Shown in pieces: positions 24,002-39,597 of a stretch of DNA of 64,000 nt. The stretch covers positions 1,440,001-1,504,000 of the forward strand of contig OY970359.1 of the NCBI GenBank assembly GCA_963718665.1, read 5' to 3'. Numbering within the stretch: position 1 is the stretch's first letter; every line of letters begins with the position of its first letter. The translations under genes and the position numbers were made by a program. This stretch comes from an uncultured Phycisphaerales bacterium. Its GTDB lineage: Bacteria > Planctomycetota > Phycisphaerae > Sedimentisphaerales > Anaerobacaceae. The notes below the pieces were generated by a model, which saw nothing but the letters and a program-made list of their open reading frames with translations, had not been told where the DNA came from and ran no database searches.

Positions 24002-24386
24002 GGAGGTAACGCCATTGAATTACACGCCCCGTATTAGGCGGTGATTTACTGTTTAATTTTGGAGGGTGAGTATGAGCAGATAGCAGGTATCGTGTCGGTC
24101 ACAAAATCTTATTTAGGCAGGTGCTGTTTCCCGGTGGGTGTTATTGGAGAAAAGGTTTTGCGAGCGAGAATAAGGTTAGGGTTGATTATAGTATCAAATA
24201 GTGTAATAAAGGATAAAATGGGCAGGGGAAATAGCCGACCACCTCTATTTGAGCAATTTATTTACTCTTAGTGGAAATATCACCATGAAAAATATTATTC
24301 CTAAGGGCTTATCCATTCCATTCGCGTTCGCCATCAGAGAGCACGAGTGGAATAAACATGAAACCATAGTTAAGAAAGGAAATTGT

Positions 24387-25373
24387 ATGAAAATATTACA
24401 TGTAGCTCCCATAAGTCACTTGAGGATCTTAGCCGTCCTCGTGGCGTGCGCCTTGGCTACGCCCACAAAGGCCGATCCCTTAAACATCTCTGTCAAGAAG
24501 GGGGGAACGGAGAGCGATGCCATCAACTCCAGGGCGACACAACAGAATTTTGATATCCATAATGATACAGGTAAACCCGCTTATGACATTGAGGTCTTGT
24601 GGGAAGACAAGGATGGAAAAACTAAGGCTGGCAAGGTGAAATCGTATAGCGACAACGGCGACGTTGACAACGCAAAAGCCACCAAACGGGCCGGCATGGA
24701 CACGGCTGTGAATGGAGGGCCCAACAATCCCGTCAAATACAAGGTCGGAACTACTGAAAGCACTGGTCAGGGGCATAATCCTGGTGACCGTAGGTTTGAT
24801 CAGCACTGTTGGGGGCAAGATCCAGTGCTTCGGATAACGATCGAATTTGATGCGGCTCCGGAACTAACCGACAAACTTTTCGTGAGTCTTACGGATATAA
24901 ATGCGTCGCTGATAGCGTGCTTGCAAGACCCGTTGACCAATACCTCCGTCGCAACTGCCGCGTCCCTGAATGGGTGCGACTACACCAACGGGCTCGTGTC
25001 GGATTCATTAAACAAGCACTACTACAATTTTTACGACTTGGAGGACAACAACGGTTTCGTCTCGCTTACTGTCCCGACCAGTTCCAGCCATACTTTGCTG
25101 GAACTACTTGACATGGATGGGGCGACGGTTCTGACGTCAGCGACGGGTTCAACGAGCCTGACGTTGAACCAAGTGTTGGGTAGCCACGGCACCTATTACG
25201 TGCGCGTGAGCAATCCCATCGAATCGGCGACTTATTCTTTATACCAATCAATCGCCTATACGGAAGGGGGCATTCCTACCATTTCTGAATGGGGTCTGGT
25301 TGGAATGGCGGGAGCACTGTTGACGGCAGGGGCTATTGTGATTATGCGGCGAAAGAGGACGGTATCGGCGTAA
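24387..25373 (+). CDS. Secreted IPTL-CTERM sorting-domain protein
   Basis: Signal peptide; C-terminus IPTISEWG + TM helix + RRKR; AAAGGA RBS before ATG 24387. Confidence 0.88.
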   Translation: MKILHVAPISHLRILAVLVACALATPTKADPLNISVKKGGTESDAINSRATQQNFDIHNDTGKPAYDIEVLWEDKDGKTKAGKVKSYSDNGDVDNAKATKRAGMDTAVNGGPNNPVKYKVGTTESTGQGHNPGDRRFDQHCWGQDPVLRITIEFDAAPELTDKLFVSLTDINASLIACLQDPLTNTSVATAASLNGCDYTNGLVSDSLNKHYYNFYDLEDNNGFVSLTVPTSSSHTLLELLDMDGATVLTSATGSTSLTLNQVLGSHGTYYVRVSNPIESATYSLYQSIAYTEGGIPTISEWGLVGMAGALLTAGAIVIMRRKRTVSA

Positions 25374-25422
25374 ATAAAGTAGACATATAACGACCCAACA
25401 ATTCGGTAAGTGAGAAACAAAG

Positions 25423-26028
25423 ATGCGGCAGTCGCGGATGGAACGATATGCTCGGCAGGGGAAAAACAGAGCGAGAAGAAACTGGAAGGATACCAGAACG
25501 AGTTCATGGTTCGCCGAGCGGAAGGGAGTATTTGTTTTTTTTGTGATTTTCGGAATTCTAATGGGTGGGTTTTACATCTTCATGTGTTTTGTGCCGGTTT
25601 ATAACGGGACTGCTTTGCCTGCATATCATCATTTAATTGCAGGAATATCGGCTAAGGCGTTGTCTTTTTTGGGAGAAAATGCGACGGCTACAGAAGCACG
25701 CATCTTTTCGCCGCGATTTTCGGTGCAGATAAAACCCGGCTGTGACGCGGTCGAGGCGACGGCGTTATTTGTTTGTGCAGTTCTTGCATTTCCGGCGAGC
25801 TTTTCGCGAAAAGCAGCGGGGATTATAGGCGGGGTATTTGCACTGGCGGTCCTGAATCTTGTGAGAGTTGCAAGTTTATTTCTTATAGGGGTTCATTTGC
25901 CGGGTATTTTTAGCGTTATGCACATCGAGGTTTGGCAGGGGTTGTTCATAATTTTCGCCGTTATGCTGTGGGTGTTATGGCTCGTATGGATAGTGCAAAA
26001 TCCAGTTTATATAAAGACAAACCTCTAA
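25423..26028 (+). CDS. xrtH: Exosortase, probably XrtH (IPTL-CTERM associated)
   Basis: Multi-TM with GCDAVE (Cys), LNLVR (Arg), MHIEVWQ (His) catalytic triad; adjacent to the IPTL-CTERM gene. Confidence 0.85.
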   Translation: MRQSRMERYARQGKNRARRNWKDTRTSSWFAERKGVFVFFVIFGILMGGFYIFMCFVPVYNGTALPAYHHLIAGISAKALSFLGENATATEARIFSPRFSVQIKPGCDAVEATALFVCAVLAFPASFSRKAAGIIGGVFALAVLNLVRVASLFLIGVHLPGIFSVMHIEVWQGLFIIFAVMLWVLWLVWIVQNPVYIKTNL

Positions 26029-26672
26029 AAGCCAAACAGGCCATAAGGGGGCTTCTCGTATTCGCGGCTATATATTGCCTGCTTTTGGCCTGCTGGCCCG
26101 TAGTGGGAAAAGTTTATTCGCGGATGCACCGTTTAGGCGCCACTTTTTTGTTCGGGTCGTTTGGGACAAACGGTGTGGTTCGCTTCGGAGAATGTAACGT
26201 CAAAGGTTTTGACACGGAAATTACCCTTTATAATTTCGGGCGAGCAACCAAAAGCGGGGTAGCCAAAAAGGGCTGGAGTTACAAGTGCCGGCGCACGGAT
26301 TATATGTACGTGGTTTTTCTAATAGCATTGATTGTGGCCACGCCGATATCGGTCAGGCGAAAGCTGCCGGCTTTGGTGTCAGGGATTCTGCTGATATACT
26401 GTTTCATAGCCGCAAAACTGGCTGCGTGGGTTATCGATAGCTTCAGCAAAGAGCCGCTTTGTCTGTTTTCGATAAGTCCTTTTTGGGAGAAAGGATTCTA
26501 TGTGTTCTATAATCTTATGCAGGATATAACTTTTGGTTTCGTGGCGGCGGCTTTTATATGGATTTTGGTATCATTTCGGCGGGAGGATTGGGCAAATATC
26601 GTTTCGGGAGAGCAGAAATCGGTTCGGATACCTTTGCGGCCGGTTGCGAAGGCAAAAATGGGACGAGCGTAA
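25986..26672 (+). CDS. Exosortase-associated membrane protein
   Basis: Multi-TM, FLIALIVATP motif; overlaps the 3' end of the exosortase gene. Confidence 0.65.
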   Translation: MDSAKSSLYKDKPLKAKQAIRGLLVFAAIYCLLLACWPVVGKVYSRMHRLGATFLFGSFGTNGVVRFGECNVKGFDTEITLYNFGRATKSGVAKKGWSYKCRRTDYMYVVFLIALIVATPISVRRKLPALVSGILLIYCFIAAKLAAWVIDSFSKEPLCLFSISPFWEKGFYVFYNLMQDITFGFVAAAFIWILVSFRREDWANIVSGEQKSVRIPLRPVAKAKMGRA

Positions 26673-26805
26673 GCCAATTATCCGCGTTGTGGTTTGGCTG
26701 AAAAATCCTTGTTTTCAACCACGATTGGGGGATAATGAAGGGATTGTCGCACCCGTTTTGTATTATCAACGTTGATAAGGAGATGAGACCATAACCGGCT
26801 CGAAC

Positions 26806-27528
26806 ATGCAGGGCGATAGCAGCACTGGACGTGTGTGTGCGCTCGTCAAATTCCGAATAGGAGGGAGTTTGCGATTTTTGTCGCACGCGGAGACGATACG
26901 CGTTTTCCAGCGGGCCTGTGTGCGGGCGGGGGTGCAAATCGCGTATAGCCAGGGGTTTAATCCGCATCAGCGAATGTCGCTTGTTCCGCCTCGAAGCGTC
27001 GGGGTCGAATCAGATGATGACCTGCTATGCCTGTGGCTCAAGGAGGGCCAGACGGACCCCGTTAGAAAGAATCGTAATACAGAAATTTCCAATAAATCGC
27101 AGATTTCTAACGGGGCGGGGATTGACGCCGAAGCGCTGAAAAGTGTGCTGCCGGCCGGCATAGAAATCATTTCAGCAGAGGCCAGCGAGGCAAAAAATAT
27201 CCCTGAGCCGATTTCAGCAAGATATGTAATGAAGGTACAGGGACAGAAAATAGATGACGGAATCAGAAAACATATTTCAGAGATATTGGCAGGCGAAAAA
27301 GTTATAGTGAACCGGCGAACAGGCGAGGATGGATGGACCAAACCTGTTGATGTAAGGCCTTTTCTGGAAACAATCAAAGCCCAGGCGCAAGAATTTACAG
27401 TTGACTGCAAGATCAGTCCGGCGGGCACGATACGCGTTGACGAAATTCTCGGTTTGCTGCAATTGAAAACCGCGGATTTAACCGGACCGGTCAGGCGGAC
27501 AAACGTGAAATACACTGACAGACACTGA
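26806..27528 (+). CDS. Radical SAM-linked protein (DUF2344-like) carrying an in-frame 21-aa repeat insertion
   Basis: LRFLSH..T...FQRA..RAG..IAYSQGFNPH, SVGVES, VDVRP; upstream of rne/rng. Confidence 0.85.
   Translation: MQGDSSTGRVCALVKFRIGGSLRFLSHAETIRVFQRACVRAGVQIAYSQGFNPHQRMSLVPPRSVGVESDDDLLCLWLKEGQTDPVRKNRNTEISNKSQISNGAGIDAEALKSVLPAGIEIISAEASEAKNIPEPISARYVMKVQGQKIDDGIRKHISEILAGEKVIVNRRTGEDGWTKPVDVRPFLETIKAQAQEFTVDCKISPAGTIRVDEILGLLQLKTADLTGPVRRTNVKYTDRH
27057..27115 (+). mobile_element. 59-bp MITE-like element, copy 1 (intragenic, in frame)
   Basis: 12-bp TIR CCCCGTTAGAAA...TTTCTAACGGGG; flanks CGGA / CGGG. Confidence 0.88.
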
Positions 27529-27556
27529 CTTAAACACTGACAAACACCGACGTAAA
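27512..27556 (+). repeat. Short periodic ACACTGAC repeats overlapping the gene end
   Basis: acactgac-ag-acactgac-ttaa-acactgac-aa-acaccgac. Confidence 0.6.
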
Positions 27557-27592
27557 CAATGAAAAACATTGATACTATGTGAGAAGAGACAA

Positions 27593-29118
27593 ATGCCAAG
27601 AGAAATGCTTATTAATGTAGCCGAGAGCGAAGAATGCCGCATAGCGGTTATGGAAAACGGCTCGCTTGAAGAACTATACGTGGAGCGGGCAAGCTCCACA
27701 AGATACGTGGGCAACATATACAAAGGCAGGGTCGTCAACGTCGAGTCGGCGATTCAGGCGGCCTTCGTGGATTTCGGAACCGGCAAAAATGGTTTCCTGC
27801 ACATCAGCGACCTGCACCCGCGATACTTCGCCGGCAAATCCGCCATCGACACCGAGGAAATCGGCAAACGACGGTCGCTCAACGAGCGCAAACCGATTCA
27901 GGCCTGCCTGCACAAGGGCGAAGAGGTAGTGGTGCAGGTTACAAAGGAAGGAATCAATACCAAGGGGCCGACGCTGAGCACCTATCTTGCGCTGCCCGGT
28001 AAATACTTAGTTATGATGCCCTGGATGGAAAAATCGGGCGTCTCCCACAAAATCGAGGACGAGCAGGAACGGATTCGACTGCGAACCCTCTTCGAGCAGA
28101 GCAATCCCCCGAAAGATATTGGCTTCATTATACGGACAGCCGCACAGGGAAGCTCAAAGCGGGACATACAAAACGATATGAAGTATCTGCGGCGACTCTG
28201 GGCCGCGATTGAAAAAAGAATTTCAGGCGCAAGACGCCGTCCGAATTGTATCAGGAATCAGACCTGGTCATCAGGACGTTGCGTGACATTTTCAATAACG
28301 ACATCAGCAGGATAATGTGCGATTCCGAAAGTATGGTTAAGCGGATTCGCGACTTCCTTTCGATAGCGTCGCCTCGTCTCAAACAGCGAGTGGTATATTA
28401 TGACGGCAAAGAGCCGTTGTTCCACAAATACAAAATTGAGCAGGAAATCGCCAAGGTCCACTCGCGGGTCGTGCCCCTCAAAACAGGCGGGTCGATTGTC
28501 ATCGAGCAGACCGAGGCGCTAGTCGCAATCGACGTAAACAGCGGAAAATTCCGCAAGCACACGGACGCTGAAGAAACCGCTTTCAAAACAAATATCGATG
28601 CGGCCGAGGAAATCGCAAGACAATTGCGTCTGCGAGACCTGGGCGGTCTCATTATCTGCGATTTCATCGATATGCGAAGCCCAAAGCATCGCAGGGAAGT
28701 GGAAAAGGTCTTCAGAATCGCAACTAGGCCTGACCGCGCAAGGTCCCGGGTTCTGCACATAAGCAGCTTCGGCCTCATCGAAATGACCCGGCAAAGGATG
28801 CGGCCTTCGCTGCAATCCAGCACGTATCTGGCCTGCCCGAACTGCGCCGGCAGCGGCTATGTCAAAAGCCACGAATCCTGCGCAATTGAACTTATCCGGC
28901 TGCTTCACCTGGCTTCCTCAAAAGAAACGGTCAAAAAAGTTGAGTTGTTTGTCTCAAACGAAGTGGCGGATTATCTCCAGAACGAAAAAAGAGCGGCGAT
29001 TGCACATATTGAACAGACCAGCAACAAGCGGGTGATTATTCATTCGTCGCCCCAATATGCCGGTGAACGCTCTGAAATTGTCTGTTATAACGACAGGGGC
29101 AGTGTGATCAAACTATAG
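27593..29118 (+). CDS. Ribonuclease E/G family; apparent frameshift near 28227
   Basis: GNIYKGRV, QAAFVDFG, IDVNSG, IARQLRLRDLGGLIICDFIDM, CPNCAGSG across two frames. Confidence 0.93.
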
Positions 29119-29223
29119 CGCCGCCGCATACCCGGTACTGCGGTAAATCTTGACGGTGAGCGGTATTTCAGCGATACTGATAGCCCGGTTGGATATTTAA
29201 GGGCTTCTGGAGCATGGCATAAA

Positions 29224-30201
29224 ATGAAATTTGACCTTGATTACGCTCGGCAGGTAATAGACAGCGAGAGTAAGGCCATAAAAGGCCTCGCGGATATAAT
29301 CGGCCCGGACTTTGAACGGGCGGCGGAGATGATTTACGGCTGCTCCGGCTCTTGCATAGTCAGCGGAATCGGCAAGGCGGGCATCATAGGCCGAAAAATC
29401 AGCGCGACATTGGCATCGACCGGTACGCCGAGCCATTTCCTGCACCCCGCGGAAGCGGTGCACGGCGACCTCGGCCGGCTTAGAAAAGAAGATATAATTC
29501 TCGTCCTCAGCTACGGCGGCGAAACCGAGGAGGTTGTCCGCCTGATTAACCTTGTCAAACAGTCCCAGATTCCGCTCATTGCGATTACCGGCGAAAAGGA
29601 TTCCACCCTCGCCAAATACAGTGACGTAGTTCTCAGTATGGGCAAGCTCACCGAGGCCTGCCCGCTGGGAATCGCGCCGAGCGTCTCGACAACCTGTATG
29701 CTCGCGCTGGGAGATGCCCTTGCGTTAATGGTAATGAAAGCCAGAAACTTCAGCGTTGAGGATTTTGCGAGGTTTCATCCGGGCGGCTCGCTCGGCACAA
29801 AACTGATGACCGTTGAGCAATCGATGATGTTCAGGCCCGGCGAGAAACTCCCGATAGCGGCCGGTTCGGACACAATTGGAAAGATTCTTAAAAACACCAG
29901 CGACGTGAAACGACACGGCGCGATAATGGTTGTTGACAAACAGGGCAAGCTGGCCGGGATAATCACAGATGGCGACATACGCCGGCTGATGACAAAAGAC
30001 GGCCCCGGCGGTTTTGATATGAAGGCCTCCGATGTTATGACTAAAAACTGCAAAAGGGTTCGCCTCGATGCACTGGCGGCGGAAGCGACGGCGATTTTCC
30101 ACAAACACAGGATCGATGAGCTGCCCGTCGTGGACGCGGACGACAAGCCCGTGGGGCTTATCGATGTGCAGGACATTGTAACAATCAAAGTTGTCGGGTG
30201 A
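29224..30201 (+). CDS. kdsD: KpsF/GutQ arabinose-5-phosphate isomerase (SIS + 2 CBS)
   Basis: GIGKAG, ASTGTPS, EAVHGDLG, EACPLG, FHPGGSLG. Confidence 0.92.
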   Translation: MKFDLDYARQVIDSESKAIKGLADIIGPDFERAAEMIYGCSGSCIVSGIGKAGIIGRKISATLASTGTPSHFLHPAEAVHGDLGRLRKEDIILVLSYGGETEEVVRLINLVKQSQIPLIAITGEKDSTLAKYSDVVLSMGKLTEACPLGIAPSVSTTCMLALGDALALMVMKARNFSVEDFARFHPGGSLGTKLMTVEQSMMFRPGEKLPIAAGSDTIGKILKNTSDVKRHGAIMVVDKQGKLAGIITDGDIRRLMTKDGPGGFDMKASDVMTKNCKRVRLDALAAEATAIFHKHRIDELPVVDADDKPVGLIDVQDIVTIKVVG

Positions 30202-30202
30202 G

Positions 30203-30316
30203 CCCCGTTAGAAAAAAATTGTAATACGGAACTTTATGATAAATCGCAGCTCTCTAACGGGGTTAGAAAAAATGGTAATACAGAAATTTCCAATAAATCG
30301 CAGATTTCTAACGGGG
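30203..30316 (+). mobile_element. Head-to-tail dimer of the 59-bp element (copies 2 and 3), intergenic
   Basis: 30203-30262 full copy (60 bp); 30262-30316 copy lacking the leading CCCC. Confidence 0.85.
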
Positions 30317-30360
30317 CAGGCCTGACAAAAAGATAATATTGAGAAAGAGCAAAAAATAAA

Positions 30361-32406
30361 ATGCTGCTGCATTCGAGAAGGTTCACAATCTGGCTCGTTT
30401 CATTCCTGGCGGTGCTGGTCGTCTATTTTATTTACAACCGCCTGAATAGGACCCCGACTATACCAACGGACATAACTACGACGCCGGCGGGGCAGCTCGC
30501 CAACGTGCGCGATTCAAATGTCAATATCGGAAAAGTCGGAGACGTCGGCGTCGGCATCATTAAAAACGCACGCTATATCACCCTTAACGCCCAAAAACAG
30601 GTCGAAAGAGAGTTCGGATTCAAAGAGCTCCTTCACCAGGACGGCAACAACTGGGAAATCGAAAAGCCATATATGAATATCTACCGCCGAAGCTTCAACT
30701 GCTCGCTTACGGGCGAGCGGGCAATAGTCGCGGTGGAAATGGCGGGCGGCCGGGTAACGCCCAAACAAGGTATGCTGATGGGCAACGTTATTATCCGGAT
30801 TTTACCCAAACAAAAAGATGCCGCCGGCGAAATGACTATTTATCTTGATGATATCTCTTTTTCCGCGGACAAATCGTTGTTTTCGACGGCAGGGCCAATC
30901 GAGCTTGTCTCGGAAAACATCCGGATGACCGGCACAGGCGTGGAAATTGTTTATAACGGCGACGACGAGCGCCTCGAACGGCTGCAAATAACAAAACTGC
31001 AGAGCTTGCGTATAAAAAAATGGTCCCAGGGAACGGTTTTGCGGTCAACGCCGGACGCCAACGCAAATAACCAAAAAGGCGAAAGCGAACAAGCATCCAA
31101 ACGCGGGAAATACTACCAATGCACGCTCGACAAAGATGTCAGGATTGAAACGCCGAATGAACGGCTGCTTGCTGACGCCCTTTTGATAAACGATATCTTC
31201 ATGCAGGACAGCTCGGATGAGCAGGCAGGACAGGGATCCTCACCCGATGAAAACTTTGCCCCGATTCCAGCCAGCAACAGACCACAGGCAGCCGTTTCGG
31301 AGGAATCGCCCAGCGATATCACAATCACCTGCGACGGCGGCATTATAGTTACCCCGATGGGTACATCAGCCGAGAAGAAATCGCCCAAACAGCAAACCAC
31401 TTATGCCGAAATTATCGCCCAGCAGGATGCCAACGCCTCTCCGGTCGGCAAAACCACCTTCAGGGGCGTAAACGTTACCTACAGCGCGATAACGGGCGAG
31501 GCAGTCGCAATCGGCCCTTCAAGCATTGCGTTTGACGTGAACGAAAAAACAGAGAACGGCGCAGGCAAACCGGGAACCGTCAGAATGACCTCCCGCCGAC
31601 AGGCCGTGTTCTCGCCCGCCTCAAACAAGAGCACATTCGAAGGCGATTGCCGCTGCACGGTCTTACAGGAGGAGGGTGCAATACTTCAACAGTATATAGT
31701 TCTGGCCGACAAGCTCGAAATCGACCTGGTTAAGAAAAATACAAACAATGACTCCGGACAGGCAATGGATGTCAATCGCATGATTGCTACCGGCCCGGGT
31801 GTGCACTTAGCCAGCACAAAAAAAACCGGCAACAAGCTGTTGACGGGTATGGAGCTTAAATGCGCCTCGGTTAATTACGATACAAACGACGGCAATTTCT
31901 TCGCGACAGGGCCGGGCCTGATAAAAGTGGATAATTCGCAGACCGATGAGCCGCAGGAAAATCTCGACAGGTTCAGCTTGCGGCGAAAAAGTTACGCCCT
32001 TATGCGGAACTTCGACTGGCTTTCCTACGCAGGCCAAAGCAAACACTTAGTAGCTGATTCGAAGGGCGGTTCGCTTTTAGTTGATTATTTCCCGATCGTC
32101 GAAGGTCACGGCAACGAAAAGGTTTCCATAACCGCATCGCATGTCGAAGCCGATATCGCCGATATGCCGACCGGGCGAACGGAGCTTAAAGATATGCAGG
32201 CAACAGGCGCGGTTACTTACGAAGACAAGGACACGCAGGTCATAGGCAACGAATTTATCTACGATGCCAACACCGCCTTAATTGATATCAAAGGCGACAA
32301 AGTCCGTCCCTGCATTTTCAACGGTGCAGTTATCGACGCCGTGCGATACGATACAAAAACCGGCAAGTGGAATACGCACCTCAAAGGCCCGGGGGCGATA
32401 AGGTAA
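30361..32406 (+). CDS. Membrane-anchored beta-rich protein, probably LptC/LptA(OstA)-like LPS transport protein
   Basis: One N-terminal TM, repeated beta-jellyroll-like segments; directly downstream of kdsD. Confidence 0.55.
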   Translation: MLLHSRRFTIWLVSFLAVLVVYFIYNRLNRTPTIPTDITTTPAGQLANVRDSNVNIGKVGDVGVGIIKNARYITLNAQKQVEREFGFKELLHQDGNNWEIEKPYMNIYRRSFNCSLTGERAIVAVEMAGGRVTPKQGMLMGNVIIRILPKQKDAAGEMTIYLDDISFSADKSLFSTAGPIELVSENIRMTGTGVEIVYNGDDERLERLQITKLQSLRIKKWSQGTVLRSTPDANANNQKGESEQASKRGKYYQCTLDKDVRIETPNERLLADALLINDIFMQDSSDEQAGQGSSPDENFAPIPASNRPQAAVSEESPSDITITCDGGIIVTPMGTSAEKKSPKQQTTYAEIIAQQDANASPVGKTTFRGVNVTYSAITGEAVAIGPSSIAFDVNEKTENGAGKPGTVRMTSRRQAVFSPASNKSTFEGDCRCTVLQEEGAILQQYIVLADKLEIDLVKKNTNNDSGQAMDVNRMIATGPGVHLASTKKTGNKLLTGMELKCASVNYDTNDGNFFATGPGLIKVDNSQTDEPQENLDRFSLRRKSYALMRNFDWLSYAGQSKHLVADSKGGSLLVDYFPIVEGHGNEKVSITASHVEADIADMPTGRTELKDMQATGAVTYEDKDTQVIGNEFIYDANTALIDIKGDKVRPCIFNGAVIDAVRYDTKTGKWNTHLKGPGAIR

Positions 32407-32588
32407 TTGCCGATTTTCGATTGCCGATTTAGCCGCAAAAAAGTGCAAAATTCACAAAAGCATAAACGTAAATCGGGGTTTATCCGCCTTTTGACCATTA
32501 CTCGAGCTTTTTATAAGGCGTCTAACTCTAATTATTACAAAGGGTTATGCTAAAATAGTAAATTTTTTGAAAAGTGGTTATATTTATA

Positions 32589-32616
32589 TTGACTTATAAT
32601 TTTATTTTTGTATAAT
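32589..32616 (+). promoter_or_regulatory. Near-consensus sigma70 promoter upstream of HNH-AP2 copy 2
   Basis: TTGACT at 32589 and TG-TATAAT ending at 32616. Confidence 0.7.
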
Positions 32617-32789
32617 TCAAACTCGCACTGGCCGGTGGTGGGCTGGCCAGGCAGTTCGCGCAGCACCCGCCTTCGCCGAAAGCTACGGCGGGCGGGGCGC
32701 AAGATGTGACCCAGCAGGGCAAGGTAGCACCAAACATTAAGGCACTTGGTGATTTTGTGTCTTAGTGGCGAATTAAAGGAGATGGGGTC

Positions 32790-33368
32790 ATGTCTGTTAA
32801 TTTAAATTTAAGGGTTCCCGAATGGTTAGACAAAATCTGCGCAAGTCCATTGATTGTTTATCGCCGGCTGAAATATGGTTTCTCGTTCCGCAGAATTTAT
32901 CTTGGGCAGAACGAATACACAATCGTCGAACCAGCGGATTACTATGCCTTCAGTAAATACAACTGGATTTTAATAAGATGCAATAAAAAACCTTACGCTA
33001 TCAGCGAATTTAAAATCGGGCGTAAAAAAACTAAGAGGGTGTATTTGCACAGGGCAATTATGAAGCCCAGAGGACGGAAACTTGTTGACCACAGAAACTG
33101 CGACGGCTTAGATAATCGCAGGGCGAACCTGCGCTTGGCTACTTATGCTCAAAATCTCGCTAACAGGGCAAAAACAAAATCGAAGACAACTTCGAAATAT
33201 CGCGGGGTTTCTTTTAACAAGGGCGGCAAGAAATGGGGTGCCACAATTAGCTGGCGACATAAGGCAAGATGGCTTGGCCGATTTGAAAACGAAATCGACG
33301 CCGCAAAAGCATACGACAAGGCCGCACGTAAATACTATAAGGATTTCGCACGGTTGAATTTTCCGTAG
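32790..33368 (+). CDS. HNH endonuclease - AP2 domain protein (copy 2)
   Basis: VDHRNCDGLDNRRANL; SKYRGV...WLGRFENEIDAAKAYDKAA...ARLNFP; colinear with 17872..18474. Confidence 0.9.
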   Translation: MSVNLNLRVPEWLDKICASPLIVYRRLKYGFSFRRIYLGQNEYTIVEPADYYAFSKYNWILIRCNKKPYAISEFKIGRKKTKRVYLHRAIMKPRGRKLVDHRNCDGLDNRRANLRLATYAQNLANRAKTKSKTTSKYRGVSFNKGGKKWGATISWRHKARWLGRFENEIDAAKAYDKAARKYYKDFARLNFP

Positions 33369-33464
33369 CCACAGATTACACAGATTGCACAGATTTATTT
33401 TTGACGCTGATTAACGCAGATTGCGCAGATTTTTCACCACGAAGCGGGACGAAGAAACACAAAG
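33368..33464 (+). repeat. Cluster of 9-bp-period repeats
   Basis: cacagatta-cacagattg-cacagattt; cgctgatta-acgcagattg-cgcagattt; cacgaag..gacgaag..cacaaag. Confidence 0.8.
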
Positions 33465-33560
33465 GTTTCGGTCAGTGATGCGTACTTAACGCGGCCTTTG
33501 CTCTCCCTAAGGGATGCGCAAGGCCCACGTCTCGTCCGCGGGTCTAACTTCGTTATCCCC

Positions 33561-33610
33561 CGGCAATTCTGCCGGAACTGGCCGAAACAAATTAAGCCGA
33601 GCGAAACACA
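33561..33610 (+). repeat. 50-bp structured repeat (partner of 8455..8504)
   Basis: CGGCAATTCTGCCGGAACTGGCCGAAACAAATTAAGCCGAGCGAAACACA. Confidence 0.7.
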
Positions 33611-33658
33611 CTGTCCGCTCCACGCTGATTATTCCTTTGACGCCGAGAACGTCAGGAT

Positions 33659-36604
33659 TTATAGGAATAAATTTCTCAACAACCCTCTTACTTTCTCCGC
33701 TTCTTTATTGTTTCCCTGCGATTCAAATAACTTTATTGCTATTTCAAGTTCATTCTTGGCTTCCTCTTTTCTTCCAATTTTAGAAAGAAAGACACCATAA
33801 TCTCTGTCATTTTTGGGGTAATTATCTACCGGATAGTTAGCCACAACTCTTGTTGTTTCTTTGTATTCTTTTTCTGCTTCTTCGTATTTTCCTAGTTTTC
33901 CTAATGTATTTGCTAAATGCCTATGGGCTGAAGGGTACATATCATTTAGTTCTATTGCTTTTCTATATTCTTTTTCGGCTTCCTTATATAGTTTTAATTT
34001 ATCCTCATCGTTTCGTGCTCTATCACCTAATTCCTCTTGTAAAATTCCTAGATTTTTATGAGCTAAGGCACTGTTTGGGTCTAATCTTAATGCGTCTACA
34101 AGAGCATTTTTTGCCTCGTCAAACTTGCCTGATCTTATCAATGCTCTTGCGCGGTGGGCATGAATATCTGGAAGTTGACTACAAAGATACTCAAATTGGG
34201 TACGAACCTTACTATCATCGGGGCGTATTTTTAGTATTTCTTCAAATTGTCGTGCCGCTTCCACCTCTCTTCCGCGATATGATAAGAAATATTCATAAGT
34301 AGTACGCGCCTTAACATTCTTGGGATTTTTTTCTATCACTTTATTGTAGCAATCTTCCGCTTCTTTGTCCCTATTTAACTTTTCTAATAAAACTCCAAGA
34401 CAAATAAGCGCGTCTTCGTAGTCTGGAGTTATTTCTAGAGCATTTCTGTACTCTTCTTCAGCTTTTTCGTATAGTTTTTTAGCCTCATCACGTCTATCTT
34501 TCTTAACTTCCTCGTTCCCCAGAGTTACTAACAGATATCCAAGATTATTATGCGCTTCTGCATAATCCCGTTTTGATTCTATAGCTTTCCTATATTCTCT
34601 TTCTGCCTCGTCATATCTTTTTAAGTTCGTTAATGCATAACCGAGAGCGAGATGGGCTTCAGCATAATTAGGATTGATATCGAGCGCTTTTCTATGTTCT
34701 TTTTCGGCTTCTTCATAATTTTTTAGATTTGCTAATAAACGACCAAGATTGACATAGGCAACAATATAATCTGGAGATGCTTTTATAGCTTTTTTGTATT
34801 CCTCTTCCGCTTCTTTCCACCTTCTCAGTTTTGCCAATAAATACCCCAAATTGTTATGAGCAGAAGGATACTCTGGCTTTAATCTTATCGCCTCCCTATA
34901 CTCTTTCTCCGCTTCTTCATCTTTTCCTAATTTGTTTGCCAATAAGTGTCCAAGGAGATTATGTGCAAAAGGAGATTCAGTATTTAACTCTATTGCCTTC
35001 TTATATTCCTTTTCCGCTTCTTCATCTTTTCCCAATTTTCCCAAGGCATACGCAAGACAATGATGTGCCGATGGATAACTTTCGTTTATCTTTATTGCTG
35101 TTCTATGTTTTTCCACCGCTTCTTGATATAACCCTCTTGCTTCATCGCATTCTCCTTTAATTTCTCCTAAGCTGGTTAGCACATACCCAAGATTGTTATG
35201 GTTTGCAGCATAAGAAGGGGCTATCTTTATTGCTTCTCTATACTCGTCTATTGCTTTTTTATATAGTTCTTCCGCTTCGTTATATTTCCCCTTGGCCTCC
35301 TCAGATTCTCCCAATTTTGTTGATGCATACCCAAGACCGTTATGTGCAAGAGCATAATTGGGATATATCCTCAACGCTGCTAAATGACAATCTTTAGCAT
35401 GAACGAAATCATTTTTATAGAGAAATCCATTCCCAAGATAGAATAAACTCCCTGGATCGTTCACCCCAATAAGCATATTCTTTAATTTCATTAAATCATT
35501 TATTGAAGGATCATAATCATAGACGCAGATATCTAAATATGCTGCGTAAATATCAATAATGCCTTCATCCATTGTGATGAGACTTCCCTCCTTCAAGTTA
35601 TTGATAATTTCATCCCAAATATATTTTTTTGTTTTTTCAGGCGGTAACTCGAAGATATTTTCGCAAACATCCTTAACGCGACTCTCTTTATAAAGGAATA
35701 AATTTCCCCCCCTTAGTAACTTTAAAGCTCTTAAAACGACTTTACCGTCTTTTGCACTTTTATATCTCTCTTTCATATCTCCCAAGTCCAAAGTAATAGA
35801 CCCGGGGGTCCCATCAAACTGTTCTGGGTTCCACTTAAAATTTTTATCTTCTTTCTTGATATCTTCTAGCAGCATCTTCCGTTCATTTTCACTAATCACT
35901 TCCAGTTCTATGGTTGTGAATTGTCTATACATTTCTGTTTTGACTAAATCCAATTCTTCTCCAGTACGGCAAGTAGCGACTACGATTAATTTTTTACTTT
36001 TCTTCTTTAAACTATCGATTACATACTCGGTCTTCTTATCAACAAAACGTTCAAGATCATCGAGAAATAGGATGAGGTTCTTATTACTCCAAGGAGGGAT
36101 TTTAATTTTTTCTATCTCTGCCTCTTCGGGTTTTGGTTTGATTACTGAGAAATTTTCAAGTTTCTTTATTGCCTCATAGGACGCTCTTGTTTTTCCTATT
36201 TTTGGTTTGCCAGTAATCAAAATATATTCTTCATTTTTAAGGGAATTCTCTATTGTCGTATCGCTTTTTCGTGGCCTGTGGGCTTTTTTATAACCTTGAA
36301 TCTTGAAGTTTTCAGGTGTAAGTTTCTTAACTGGTTCATAAAATTCCCAAATCTTTCTAAATTCATCCTCTTTTTCTTTTTTCCAAGCATAAATCGTGAT
36401 CACAAAAAACACAGGAACAAGGGCAACCAAACCTATCATATGTATAGAGCAAAACTTGATGAGGTTAGATATCATCTCTTCTTTCCATTCGTGAGGAATA
36501 CGCTCATATATGATATTGCCGGAAATGGCCACGATGAGGCCAACCACGATACTCCCAAATATAAAACTCCCCATTAATTTTATGATTTTCCACAGACCTG
36601 CCAT
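33659..36604 (-). CDS. 2TM - STAND-like P-loop NTPase - TPR array protein (NLR-like)
   Basis: Two N-terminal hydrophobic helices; Walker A GKPKIGKT, Walker B LILFLDD, IVVATCR, GTP (GxP); more than ten TPRs (AHNNLG...EAEEEYKKAI...P); AT-rich. Confidence 0.85.
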   Translation of the reverse strand: MAGLWKIIKLMGSFIFGSIVVGLIVAISGNIIYERIPHEWKEEMISNLIKFCSIHMIGLVALVPVFFVITIYAWKKEKEDEFRKIWEFYEPVKKLTPENFKIQGYKKAHRPRKSDTTIENSLKNEEYILITGKPKIGKTRASYEAIKKLENFSVIKPKPEEAEIEKIKIPPWSNKNLILFLDDLERFVDKKTEYVIDSLKKKSKKLIVVATCRTGEELDLVKTEMYRQFTTIELEVISENERKMLLEDIKKEDKNFKWNPEQFDGTPGSITLDLGDMKERYKSAKDGKVVLRALKLLRGGNLFLYKESRVKDVCENIFELPPEKTKKYIWDEIINNLKEGSLITMDEGIIDIYAAYLDICVYDYDPSINDLMKLKNMLIGVNDPGSLFYLGNGFLYKNDFVHAKDCHLAALRIYPNYALAHNGLGYASTKLGESEEAKGKYNEAEELYKKAIDEYREAIKIAPSYAANHNNLGYVLTSLGEIKGECDEARGLYQEAVEKHRTAIKINESYPSAHHCLAYALGKLGKDEEAEKEYKKAIELNTESPFAHNLLGHLLANKLGKDEEAEKEYREAIRLKPEYPSAHNNLGYLLAKLRRWKEAEEEYKKAIKASPDYIVAYVNLGRLLANLKNYEEAEKEHRKALDINPNYAEAHLALGYALTNLKRYDEAEREYRKAIESKRDYAEAHNNLGYLLVTLGNEEVKKDRRDEAKKLYEKAEEEYRNALEITPDYEDALICLGVLLEKLNRDKEAEDCYNKVIEKNPKNVKARTTYEYFLSYRGREVEAARQFEEILKIRPDDSKVRTQFEYLCSQLPDIHAHRARALIRSGKFDEAKNALVDALRLDPNSALAHKNLGILQEELGDRARNDEDKLKLYKEAEKEYRKAIELNDMYPSAHRHLANTLGKLGKYEEAEKEYKETTRVVANYPVDNYPKNDRDYGVFLSKIGRKEEAKNELEIAIKLFESQGNNKEAEKVRGLLRNLFL

Positions 36605-36725
36605 TTTATCCTCCGGTATTCAATTATAAGGTGCTCCGTAGGCAATCGCGCACAACTAAAATAACCGAACGCTTCATGCTCCTAATTAGCATATTTCCTC
36701 TGCAACTATTCTGCCGTTCACCTAC

Positions 36726-36806
36726 TCACCTGTCAAGGGCGGCCTTGAGAACGTCGTCGGCTTTTTTAACAAAGACAAACTTCACCCCTTTTTTCGCCTC
36801 AAGATT
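36726..36806 (-). pseudogene. Orphan fragment resembling the extreme C-terminus of Lon protease
   Basis: NLEAKKGVKFVFVKKADDVLKAALDR*, with an in-frame stop directly upstream. Confidence 0.55.
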
Positions 36807-36892
36807 TCATAATACCGACGTTACCGTATTACTCGCTGCCCTTCGGGAAGATAAATCCTGTTATCCTATCAAAAAACTATGTAGCAAAAACG

Positions 36893-37636
36893 TCAGCGGC
36901 AGAGGGCTTTTAGTTCGGAGAGGGACAGTTCGTTTAGATGCTCAATAACTTTATCCGCGGGTTTTAAGTGTTCAGCGGCGTAAGTGTTGGTAATGGCGAC
37001 CGTTCGCATGCCGGCGGCCTTCGCGGCCTCAAGGCCCCAGTGCGAATCCTCAATCACAACACAATTTTCCGGCTTGATTGACTTGTGCATCCTCTTGTCG
37101 AGCAGTTTCAGAGCCAGCAGAAAACCTTCGGGGTCGGGTTTGCCATTTTCAACCTGTTCGGCTGAAACAATCACCTCGAAATAACTGCGCAACAACGCAC
37201 CCTTAAGAATCATTTCGATTTCAGGCAGCAACGCGCCGGAGCAGATTCCAATCGGGATTTTATTGCCGGCGAGCATATTAAGAAACTGGGGCACGCCCTC
37301 GATTATGCCCGCCCCGTTAGAAATCTGCGATTTATCGGAAACTTTTGTATTACGATTTTTTCTAACGGGGCCCGCCTCGGTCGCCGCCATTTCTTTGAAG
37401 AGGTTCGCCTTTTCGCCGAGCAATTTTTCGAACTGCTGATTCGATAAAGACAGCTTTCCCTCTTTGTTAACAATTCGCAGAAGCTCCTGGTCTGAAAGCC
37501 CGAGGAACCTGTCATAATAATCGCGTATCGATAACTGGTAATTGAATTTGGTCAGCGTGCGGTTGAACGCCTGATAGTGCAGTTTTTCGGAATCCACGAG
37601 GACGCCATCGAAATCAAATATAACAGCTTCGAGCAT
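36893..37636 (-). CDS. HAD-superfamily phosphatase (beta-PGM/CbbY-like) carrying an in-frame 21-aa repeat insertion
   Basis: IFDFDGVLVDSE, GKPDPEGF, VIEDS..GLEAAKAAGM. Confidence 0.93.
   Translation of the reverse strand: MLEAVIFDFDGVLVDSEKLHYQAFNRTLTKFNYQLSIRDYYDRFLGLSDQELLRIVNKEGKLSLSNQQFEKLLGEKANLFKEMAATEAGPVRKNRNTKVSDKSQISNGAGIIEGVPQFLNMLAGNKIPIGICSGALLPEIEMILKGALLRSYFEVIVSAEQVENGKPDPEGFLLALKLLDKRMHKSIKPENCVVIEDSHWGLEAAKAAGMRTVAITNTYAAEHLKPADKVIEHLNELSLSELKALCR
37312..37370 (-). mobile_element. 59-bp MITE-like element, copy 4 (intragenic, in frame)
   Basis: Perfect 12-bp TIRs; exact 4-bp direct repeat CCCG on both sides (+ strand). Confidence 0.9.
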
Positions 37637-37695
37637 ATCAACACCTTTGGCCACAGAGATTTCCGAAGCGGGCTCGTCGTTTCGCTCCGTGTTTA

Positions 37696-37790
37696 GCCAC
37701 AGAGGACACAGAGAGCACAGAGATTAAAAACAAAAACAGTGTAAATCCGTGTTAATCCGTGTCTGAAATCAGCGGTGTCAATTCGTGTCT
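37696..37790. repeat. 9-bp-period repeats in both orientations
   Basis: cacagagga-cacagagag-cacagaga, then cagtgtaaa-tccgtgttaa-tccgtgtc. Confidence 0.7.
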
Positions 37791-37796
37791 GTTTCA

Positions 37797-39597
37797 TTAT
37801 TGTTCGGGGACGGGGCCAATCAGGGCGGCAAAGTCCGTGAACGAGGATTTGTCGCCCGAACATATTAACTGGATAAGCGCCGCGTTTTTCGGCGAGTTTT
37901 TAGTGATGAACCGTCGGGCGACAATCGCCTTGCGTTTTTTCATAGGCATCGTCTGCTCTTTTGCTTCGTCTGAATCCTCGACCGCGACGGTCATCTCGAC
38001 CTTCGTGCTTGCGTAATCGCAGAACAAATACCCCACGATTAAATCCATCGCGATATCGACCAGCGGTCTTCCGTAGAGGTCCATATACTCCGCGCCCTGC
38101 TGTTTGACAAACGCGACGGCTGAGAATAGCTGTTTTGTTCCTTCGGCTAATTTGGCGAGCAGGTCTTTCAATTCGGGGTCATATTCTTTCTGCGCCAGCT
38201 CCGCAAGGTACTTTTCCGCTGTGCCGCTGCAAACGCCGCGGACCGCCGCGACAATTTGCAACTGAGAAGTGCCTTCGTAAATCGTCGTGATTCGGGCGTC
38301 GCGCGCATGCCGCTCGACCGCGTAATCGCGCATATAACCCGAACCGCCGAGAACCTGGATTGAGTCATAACTGACGCGGTTTGCCATTTCAGAGCATATA
38401 TATTTGCTCATCGGGGTCAGCATCGACGCGAGCCGGTCAAATCGGCGCGTCTGCTCTTTCAGCGATTTCAGTTTCTCTTTATCCGTAGGCGGGTTTAATT
38501 CGAGCTGCTTTTCACAGGAGATATTTATATCGACGACACGGGACGTTTCATAAAGCATCGCCCGTCCCGCCTCAATCGAGATTTTCATATCAATCAGCAT
38601 GTCGCGGACGGCAGGCAGCTTTTGTATTGCTGTGCCGAATTGTTTTCTGCTCGACGCGTAATCTCTCGCCACGCGATACGCCGCTTCGGCGATACCCAAT
38701 GACTGGCCGGCGATTCCGATACGCGCGCCGTTCATCAATGCCATAACGTATGTAACTAATCCGCGCTGCCTTTCGCCGATTAGCTGGCAGGGGGTGTTAT
38801 CGAAGAATATTTCGCAGGTGGGGCTGCCGTGAATGCCTAACTTGTCTTCAAGCCGGCGGATATGCACGGTCGGGCCTCTGTCGCATACGAACAAGCTGAG
38901 TCCCAGTCCGCCTGTGCGGTCCGGCTCGCTTCTGGCTAACACGAGCAGAACTTCGCCGCAGCCATTGGTGATAAATCTCTTAACACCGTGCAACAACCAG
39001 TTGCCGTTGTTATCCTGGAACGCGCGCAGCTTGACGGCCTGCAAATCCGAACCGGCATCCGGCTCAGTAAGCACCATCGCGCCAGTAATTTTGCCGGCGG
39101 CAAAATCATGCAGGTATTTTTGTTTTATTTCCTCGGACGCGAAGGCATCGATTGTCCCCGCGATACCCTGTAACCCGAATATATTCATAAGCGAGGCGTC
39201 GGCGCGAGACGATTTCGGTCGCCATCGAATAGACGAGATTCGGGAAATTAATCCCGCCGAAACGGTGAGGCAATGTAAAACCCATCACCTCCGCCTTGGC
39301 TAATTTGTCCATTGATTCGGCGATTCCTTTTGCGTAACTCACTGAGCCGTCGGCGTTGAGGGTACTGCCTTCCCTGTCAACCGATTCAGCCCGCGGCGCG
39401 ATAAAGTCCCCGCTCAACTGACCGATAGAATCGAGAACCATCTCATAATTGCGTATCGCTTCATCGGCGTCGGCGGGCGCGGAATCGAACTGCGAAGCGA
39501 ATTTGAAATCCTCTTCACACAATTTAGCGAGAGCGCCCAGGTCGATGTGTTTGAATAAAAATCGTATGTCGTCGTTATCAGTGTAAAAATTTGGCAT
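37797..39597 (-). CDS. Acyl-CoA dehydrogenase; apparent frameshift near 39203
   Basis: MVLTEPDAGSDL, GVKRFITNG, KLGIHGSPT, QVLGGSGY, RDARITTIYEGTSQLQ; N-terminus in ORF 39106..39597. Confidence 0.93.

Follow-up and report, generated by a model that had tools for sequence, protein, structure and literature searches.

Within a 64,000-nucleotide stretch of the genome of an uncultured Phycisphaerales bacterium (contig OY970359.1; hereafter the window), two unrelated genes, encoding a DUF2344 protein and a HAD-family phosphatase, each contain a 59-bp palindrome in which exact 12-bp arms (CCCCGTTAGAAA / TTTCTAACGGGG) enclose 35 bp, and related palindromes lie between two other genes (Table 1). The arms and flanks that an earlier sequence-only reading of this DNA had assigned to the two genic copies were recovered exactly: the element lies between CGGA and CGGG in the DUF2344 gene and between two CCCG copies on the + strand of the HAD gene (CGGG/CGGG on the coding strand). 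Both copies sit within open frames, adding the peptides PVRKNRNTEISNKSQISNGAG (DUF2344) and PVRKNRNTKVSDKSQISNGAG (HAD) to hosts that match PF10105 and PF13419, respectively. That reading had also seen no mobilising enzyme in the window, and we likewise found none among the window genes. The stem predicted for the arms is stable (z about -3.1 to -3.4), and no Rfam family was matched at gathering thresholds in window positions 26000-38500. To place these elements in context, we compared the source genome (G000; 2.61 Mb, 94.6% complete) with its relatives across 24 genomes of the genus including G000, 23 of which yielded an orthologue of each host gene; other G numbers denote compared genomes and L numbers denote loci.

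Table 1. Palindromic elements, duplicated target bases and host genes in the window (positions are those of the window).
Feature	Position	Strand	Remarks
Host gene 1, DUF2344 / TIGR03936 radical-SAM-associated protein, 240 aa	26806..27528	+	Profile matches
Left 4-bp target duplication copy at DUF2344	27053..27056	+	CGGA; CGGG in G015 and G016
Element, 59 bp, in DUF2344/TIGR03936 gene	27057..27115	+	In frame; present in 4/23 genus orthologues, absent from 19
Right 4-bp target duplication copy at DUF2344	27116..27119	+	CGGG; empty sites shorter by element plus net 4 bp
kdsD/kpsF sugar-phosphate isomerase	29224..30201	+	Stop TGA is the first three bases of target TGAG
Target TGAG of outer intergenic copy	30199..30202	+	Flanking copies in 8 relatives; one TGAA where G002 is empty
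Inner 60-bp copy, second subfamily variant	30203..30262	+	Inserted at TTAG of outer left arm; TTAG again at 30263-30266
Rest of outer 59-bp copy	30263..30316	+	Right end joined to CAGG at former kdsC 3' end; kdsC deleted
Host gene 2, HAD-family phosphatase	36893..37636	-	Insert between residues 86 and 88 of solved homologue TM_1254 (3kbb)
Downstream duplication copy at HAD	37308..37311	-	CGGG on coding strand
Element, 59 bp, in HAD (beta-PGM-like) gene	37312..37370	-	In frame; present in 3/23 orthologues, absent from 20
Upstream duplication copy at HAD	37371..37374	-	CGGG on coding strand

That the window copies are real insertions is, in our judgement, nearly certain. The sequence-only reading had proposed a non-autonomous insertion of the kind known as transposable elements of the miniature inverted-repeat type (MITEs), with a 4-bp duplication, a preserved frame and 21 added residues, and alignment of orthologues bore this out: most of them are empty at both sites (Table 1), the filled sites are 63 bp longer, and orthologues lacking the insert show a clean 21-residue gap, the exception being G008 with a different short insert at the DUF2344 site. 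At the DNA level, the empty HAD site reads GAGG-CGGG-CATA, the filled allele has CGGG on either side, and a contig from an unrelated public sequencing run also skips the 63 bp. Comparison with empty sites gives a net +4 at DUF2344, HAD, kdsD, both rlmN sites and hypE (the hypE duplication being imperfect, with TGAA as the right copy and TTTA as the target). Furthermore, near-identical elements occupy the unrelated targets CGGG, TGAG, CGCG, CGAG and TTAG, whose empty sites are single-copy. Filled alleles are not monophyletic (three changes per gene tree, at least two of them forced by supported branches for DUF2344), a scatter for which there are three possible explanations: recurrent insertion at a preferred site, precise loss, or exchange of alleles between species. 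The insert was also mapped onto structure, as the earlier reading had recommended, by alignment to the solved HAD homologue in the PDB, and it falls between residues 86 and 88, in this fold the cap-core linker; a single-sequence model of the HAD protein with its insert reached a mean pLDDT of 43 and was not used.

A BLASTn search with three window copies as queries placed the subfamily at only nine places in the 2.61 Mb of G000, four of them inside the same 10.3 kb, contrary to the expectation from the window that many more copies would be found genome-wide. Five of the nine are in frame (DUF2344, HAD, rlmN twice, and the dnaB leader), and subfamily interiors are identical to that of the DUF2344 copy at 24-33 of 35 positions. 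Given these differences, and given that other species of the genus, at 78-92% protein identity, also have these sites filled, recent activity is only partly supported. Allowing one mismatch per arm, the whole of G000 contains 19 arm pairs and three Markov-3 simulated genomes contain 0, 0 and 0, so the pairs are not due to chance. The peptide is nearly identical among the three to four filled orthologues of each gene, and the notion of one peptide written repeatedly holds within the subfamily; family-wide only the ends are fixed, as PVR..SNG or, in the other open frame, PLE..LTG. Both cases occur in rlmN of G000, where one of two in-frame copies is read in the PVR..SNG frame and the other, reversed, as PLE..FLTG, giving unrelated peptides. 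The dnaB copy, a single in-frame subfamily member, lies in an N-terminal extension, and hypE carries an element with the same arms and a different interior. RlmN, DnaB and HypE orthologues occur without these inserts, and in relatives other repeat families occupy the same loops. Such coding palindromes are abundant in the genus: short in-frame inserts of different repeat families were seen in HAD, DUF2344 and RlmN of relatives (L013, L023, L024, L041, L042, L043 and L052; for rlmN, L460, L462 and L464), one example being an 8-residue HAD insert in G006, G007 and G014.

The two intergenic copies reported from the window sequence are present, one being nested in the other; the outer copy lacks its own CCCC. 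In eight relatives, a single element lies on the kdsD stop codon with TGAG on either side, followed by kdsC, and G002 provides the empty site. In G000, a second 60-bp copy (one mismatch in the right arm) has inserted at TTAG within the left arm of the first; G007 retains the uncollapsed junction TGAG-CCCCG-TTAG-CCCCGTTAG..., and the same nesting is found in G012 and G006. Of the 24 genomes, 19 have the kdsC gene (TIGR01670) here. G000, G006, G017 and G007 lack it, the element end being fused in them to the old 3' end of the gene, and so does G004, which has no element there; tblastn found no kdsC match elsewhere in G000, an assembly that is 94.6% complete.

Unmentioned in the sequence-only reading, the ends of these palindromes belong to a cross-phylum family whose longer members encode a GIY-YIG nuclease, not a DDE transposase. 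A GTDB scan with the exact arms returned at least 122 stretches, which by the record labels among the matches listed fall in at least seven phyla (Omnitrophota, many Patescibacteria, Planctomycetota, Desulfobacterota/delta-proteobacteria, Nitrospirota, Nitrospinota and Elusimicrobiota), a few further matches listed being labelled Clostridia and Gammaproteobacteria. The spread is patchy, with arms in one of 300 other genomes drawn from the phylum of the window and in 16 of 121 from the phylum of G036, the genome with the highest load (69 short copies in 1.4 Mb). For analysis we assembled 133 distinct elements, 120 from the GTDB scan and 13 from G036/G037 stretches, leaving out nested elements and those within 16 bases of a locus end. 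An exact 4-bp duplication flanks 88 of the 133, compared with about 11 by permutation, and all 88 read Y-N-N-R; duplications of 2, 3, 5 and 6 bp occur in 5, 3, 2 and 0 elements. The prediction that other copies would show 4-bp duplications holds for these 88, with three misfitting sites in G000. Perfect 12-14-bp stems are formed by 124 of 136 short elements (the search patterns themselves imposed 10-11 bp), and the interiors are almost unrelated (117 clusters among 133 elements), so that the family is defined by fixed ends and not by a fixed peptide. No gene was common to the element flanks among 122 loci, and IMG/VR gave no match to short or long arm patterns, that is, no carrier in that collection.

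The lengths of the short elements (about 30-80 bp, and 40-80 bp in the 133 analysed, with peaks at 53, 59, 62, 65 and 68 bp) are mostly those that preserve a reading frame. Length plus 4 is divisible by three in 96 of 133 elements and, among the copies flanked on either side by 50 or more open codons (82 copies examined), in 20 of 20. The arms contain TAG and TAA; at these lengths both stops share one frame, leaving two frames per strand open. In those two open frames the interiors hold 54 and 66 stops, compared with about 111 in shuffles (minima 87 and 85), and the arm-closed frame holds 162; since family elements are not independent draws, this depletion is given without a probability. The family is thus shaped toward harmless translation. 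Short copies at prepilin-type leaders (L247, L251 and L256 in G037, and L393) are inserted at G|FTL cleavage codons, one full nuclease unit among them, and rebuild ...FLTGFTLIELL.... A sister set with arms CCCCGTGAGAT was seen in G000 (C1 at 17069, 22833, 490797, 993593, 1106587, 1271171, 1377939, 1563023 and others) and includes 33-35-bp hairpins that are common across the genus.

Searching for a larger element with the same ends, a check the sequence-only reading had suggested, yielded no transposase-encoding insertion sequence (IS) in G000 or among the G036/G037 stretches listed, and instead, in arm-bounded searches up to about 330 bp, units of 271-320 bp encoding a GIY-YIG nuclease. Arms separated by a 251-311-bp gap occur in more than 122 metagenome stretches, and a gap of 255-295 bp occurs in 22 of 301 genomes of G036's phylum. 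By motif score, 90 of 142 distinct arm-bounded stretches of 265-334 bp contain one GIY-YIG-type open reading frame (ORF) of about 86 residues, the other 52 being mostly tandem short copies, decayed units or unrelated DNA. Fifty-nine of the 84 nuclease ORFs of 78-100 residues were aligned; all 59 match PF01541, with Y5, G18, R26, E50 and R61 invariant and Y16 and E62 nearly so. The predicted structure (pLDDT 91) has UPF0213 and Slx1 as its nearest solved proteins by sequence and fold search, and this clade carries a C-terminal helix whose codons extend into the right arm. The ORF occupies the whole unit: 43 of 90 end ...LTG in the right arm and take the first three flank bases (TAA, TGA or TAG) as stop, which points to a long co-evolution of nuclease and ends.

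The association also holds in reverse, in that 12 of 23 nuclease matches of at least 100 bits have both exact arms and seven more have variant arms, compared with 0 of 33 weaker GIY-YIG matches having an exact arm. The protein family is large (at least 2,687 clusters at E<=1e-20); tblastn with the nuclease gave no match in the annotated phages and one weak hit in the plasmids searched. Across 121 genomes of G036's phylum, the nuclease occurs in 5 of 16 with short copies and 8 of 105 without (Fisher p=0.014; kin are not independent). At L476 (G036:C93) and L482 (G634:C9), more distant GIY-YIG units, again placed on ATGAA, have TGAA at either end and other arms that begin with CCCCG (CCCCGCCCTTCC, CCCCGCACCTTC), which suggests a wider superfamily with enzyme-specific arms. 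Small GIY-YIG genes at L421, L422, L433, L477, L499 and L500 lie between or just before apparent tRNA gene starts (GGGGTGTAGCTCAG..., GGGGTGGAGCAG...), and are possibly tRNA-targeting units, the tRNA identity being putative.

The only close nuclease homologue in G000 lies 403 kb before the window, in a 304-bp unit (G000:C1:1036794-1037097) that is placed on the ATGAA start of a response regulator gene, has 16-bp sibling arms (TCCAGTTAGACCTCCT) and is flanked by a duplication of TGAA. This unit takes over the host ribosome-binding site and ATG and ends in a TGA overlapping the regenerated host ATG, its right arm supplying GGAGG. Its ORF is intact and 54% identical to a CCCCGTTAGA-armed nuclease; its 5' part holds, in frame, a decayed short element ending TTTCTAACGGGA. 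The site is empty in G007 and G002, and the unit is common to G006 and G033. Of the seven close nuclease matches in the genus, three have sibling arms, three are an arm-decayed gene followed by a short element, and one is armless; a sister-set hairpin directly follows the nuclease gene with decayed arms of its own in G032, G008 and G031. G000 has a second small GIY-YIG gene of another type (C1:543362-543583, L265), to which the nuclease is only 30% identical over 66 residues and which we take, from its motifs, to be an Ssn-type protein. An Ssn-like system probably coexists in this genome, where 14 matches to the SRM pattern and several NTS-like repeats were seen (TGTCATTCCCGCG(A/C)AAGCGGGAATC).

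Starting from what these comparisons demonstrate, namely the insertions, the ends, the target consensus, the duplication, the frame-keeping lengths, the stop depletion and the two-way link between the ends and one nuclease clade, we propose that the short palindromes are probably non-autonomous copies, which the GIY-YIG nuclease of ~86 residues would move in trans. Whether the system amounts to a new class of bacterial transposon is a question on which we are evenly divided; it would be the smallest known (~270-300 bp), with a GIY-YIG nuclease as its sole enzyme, and would read a 12-bp stem, accept any loop as cargo, borrow the start and stop codons of its targets, and have given rise to hundreds of miniature lineages that preserve the frame and put new loops into core proteins of groundwater and sediment phyla. 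GIY-YIG enzymes hydrolyse DNA and are not known for strand transfer. In the mechanism we envisage, a strand that becomes single, on the lagging strand or in a cruciform, would let the arms pair into a 12-14-bp stem irrespective of loop content. This paired stem would be what the nuclease recognises, and the nick would fall at the foot of the stem, adjoining the 4-nt flank; joining of the hairpin to a Y-N-N-R site and filling of the 4-nt gap would be the work of host polymerase and ligase. More speculatively, donor flanks might be carried along and resolved as a short heteroduplex, giving mismatched junctions. Variants with a length plus 4 divisible by three and two stop-free frames would survive in more places and spread further, because nearly all of a bacterial chromosome is coding, and the extra peptide would then most likely have no function and be a passenger that loops and termini tolerate. 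The free loop of this model fits both the unrelated interiors and the dispensable loop of the hairpin that the nuclease SsnA cuts, as single-stranded DNA, a few bases upstream (as described in PMC11893778).

Several observations weigh against this proposal. At three of six further sites in G000 (863344, 1271171 and 1377939; all intergenic), the gain is +1 to +3 and both flanks differ from those of the empty allele, which a simple staggered cut does not yield. An exact duplication is found in only 22 of 90 full-length nuclease units, and the flanks of 40 of the remaining 68 read Y-R-R-R outwards at both ends; that template switching had turned the flanks into a longer stem was dismissed, given exact inverted flanks in 5 of 68 compared with 10.7 expected. 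The arms of the G000 unit differ from the window arms at 2 of the first 10 bases, and no nuclease unit with exact CCCCGTTAGA arms was found in G000 or its 23 congeners. In G036, whose assembly is incomplete, the best nuclease match reaches 79 bits and has different arms, and co-occurrence is loose, 11 of the 16 genomes with short copies having no nuclease match at E<=1e-28. Short interiors are unrelated to the 90 sampled units; their derivation from nuclease units by internal deletion was rejected (3 of 136 score at least 30, compared with 1 of 136 shuffled). Finally, the arm-bounded searches covered lengths up to about 330 bp.

This last bound bears on the idea that a conventional transposase, as yet unseen (for example, a DDE enzyme making 4-bp duplications), moves both the short copies, as MITEs, and the ~280-bp units, as a transporter-type MITE, the nuclease then being cargo that aids spread by cutting element-free alleles or incoming DNA. 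Terminal inverted repeats with a fixed 4-bp duplication are the classic DDE mark, and the loose co-occurrence of nuclease and short copies would fit as well. We nonetheless think this explanation unlikely, since all arms in G000 but one (989722, whose nearest gene is HNH-AP2) pair within 70 bp; in 20 stretches of G036/G037 around lone arms (from listings of 100 of the 114 arms and 50 of the 53), the output listed showed close degenerate partners or no transposase-like ORF; no gene recurs in the flanks of many loci; and the nuclease ORF fills its unit to the point of borrowing a stop from the flank. An IS-sized unit with these arms was seen neither in G000 nor among the G036/G037 stretches listed. 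A DDE partner of the piggyBac/IS1380 kind, guessed from a resemblance of ends, was rejected for this genome, in which the sole multi-copy DDE element, of PF01609, has other ends and longer duplications; a RAYT/TIRYT partner was set aside because the two weak PF01797 (Y1) matches have no arms within 600 bp; and the HNH-AP2 genes are 27 dispersed paralogues with arms near only three.

Quite unlikely, in our view, is that the nuclease transposes nothing and only nicks single-stranded hairpins as SsnA does, the palindromes spreading passively by break-induced recombination, template switching and gene conversion. Such spread would also account for foreign flanks, adjacent deletions such as that of kdsC and patchy presence, and it draws further on the non-monophyletic filled alleles, on the many units lacking an exact duplication, with their Y-R-R-R flanks, and on SsnA itself, described in PMC11893778 as modulating recombination of transforming DNA and not shown there to transpose. 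Homology-driven copying, however, makes no new non-homologous sites of constant geometry, and here exact 4-bp duplications of variable sequence flank most family elements, near-identical copies of which sit at unrelated targets with single-copy empty sites. This alternative departs from mobilisation by the nuclease mainly in the degree of directed joining. Selection of the peptide or of an RNA hairpin for a host function (a regulatory stem, removal at the RNA level or a protein tag) would suit the stable stem and the near-identity of the peptide among filled orthologues, but this possibility, at which the sequence-only reading hinted, is very improbable: most orthologues lack the insert, the rlmN copies are read in opposite frames, the family has no common interior, the loops concerned also receive other repeat families in relatives, and no Rfam family matches.

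Other elements and genes were noted along the way. The PF01609 element of G000 comprises seven identical 1,044-bp ISs (G000:C1:501587 and six others; L508-L514) whose ends read TGCTCTGTAGAAA / TTTCTACAAAGCA and whose duplications measure about 8-9 bp; it is recently active and unrelated to the palindromes. A free-standing HNH-AP2 endonuclease gene at window positions 32790-33368 has paralogues at 26 other places in G000 (38-57% identity), most of them surrounded by low-complexity and palindromic repeats, and some paralogues share an upstream block ending GCGCCATAGGRTAGAGG; these genes look like a second selfish family. On the minus strand at 33659-36604, an AT-rich gene encodes a TPR protein of 981 aa that weakly matches nSTAND3 NTPase at its N-terminus (E 1.6e-4) and is a candidate defence sensor, and a contig of another sequencing run joins 32410 to 36927, omitting both the TPR-protein and HNH-AP2 genes. 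The RNase E/G gene (27569-29118) is split into two ORFs at about 28229, probably by an assembly error, because contigs from two sequencing runs, from which this DNA may derive, have one extra base there. At 24249-26672, a protein has an IPTL-like C-terminal sorting signal (GGIPTISEWG); next to it come an exosortase-like gene (PF09721, E 1.6e-5) and another membrane protein.

In-frame selfish palindromes have been known since those of Rickettsia, for which PMC10969869, in the text consulted, names no mobilising enzyme. The miniature copies described here have a candidate parent with the same ends, whose enzyme counts 86 residues; the target is defined, empty alleles exist, and mobilisation therefore becomes a simple bench question. 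Should the proposal hold, GIY-YIG would join DDE, HUH and the serine, tyrosine and DEDD recombinases as a transposition chemistry, categorically new once transposition by the nuclease is shown, and the loop-tolerant 12-bp stem would make an attractive minimal tool for insertion or single-strand cutting. With loops added to RlmN, HypE and the DnaB leader, and with an adjacent deletion of kdsC, the proteomes of uncultured lineages have been shaped by these elements, and palindromic inserts can mislead annotation and marker alignments.

Among known systems, an element bounded by terminal inverted repeats and encoding only a GIY-YIG nuclease was not described among the papers listed in the literature searches, which left subscription papers and bioRxiv supplements outside, and the arm sequences, sought as text, matched only unrelated primers in the 30 papers listed of 114. 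A close likeness is to Ssn/SRM (Chenal et al. 2025, PMC11893778; CDD cd10448), in which a single-domain GIY-YIG protein of ~90 residues is tied to a hairpin repeat that is also solitary in many copies, and whose authors note that NTS-ssnA-NTS resembles an insertion sequence. None of the 133 short elements and none of the 90 unit ends, however, fits the published SRM pattern; whole hairpins flank ssnA, whereas here two arms of one palindrome enclose the gene; the 4-bp duplications and empty sites seen here have no stated counterpart in the main text of that paper, where "target site duplication" has 0 occurrences; and the present nuclease is nearest UPF0213/Slx1 by sequence and fold. With the stand-alone Slx1-like/UPF0213 proteins (Dunin-Horkawicz et al. 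2006, PMC1564403; PDB 1zg2, 1ywl) it shares a minimal single-domain GIY-YIG fold, yet in the text consulted of that survey they are described as stand-alone or methyltransferase-linked genes and not as the content of an inverted-repeat unit.

Prokaryotic MITEs, described in PMC10969869 and PMC11602168 as non-coding elements of 50-800 bp that end in inverted repeats of 10 bp or more, have a 2-10-bp target duplication and show nesting and adjacent deletions, resemble the short copies, which have inverted repeats of that length, a duplication backed by empty sites, no enzyme gene of their own, nesting and an adjacent deletion. They differ in that the same-ended partner here encodes a GIY-YIG nuclease instead of a transposase, that the interiors are almost unrelated, and that frame-keeping lengths are over-represented among the copies, whereas the bacterial MITEs catalogued in PMC11602168 are about 90% intergenic; the main text of that catalogue contains "GIY", "Patescibacteria" and "Omnitroph" 0 times. 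The REP/REPIN and TIR repeats associated with the tyrosine transposases RAYT and TIRYT (Di Nocera et al. 2013, PMC3733652) are likewise small palindromes that lie in part within genes and whose inverted repeats also enclose a small gene, but no GTAG or CGTC tag is found here and the enclosed gene is GIY-YIG, not HUH/Y1. Rickettsia palindromic elements (Ogata et al. 2000, 2002, as summarised in PMC10969869) are in-frame palindromes in unrelated genes that add a peptide and leave the protein unbroken, as is the case here in DUF2344, HAD, RlmN twice, the DnaB leader and, with another interior, HypE. The Rickettsia elements are described there as about 150 bp long, with a conserved peptide and confined to one genus, whereas the family described here measures 30-80 bp, conserves only its 12-bp ends, extends patchily over several phyla and has a candidate enzyme-carrying member.

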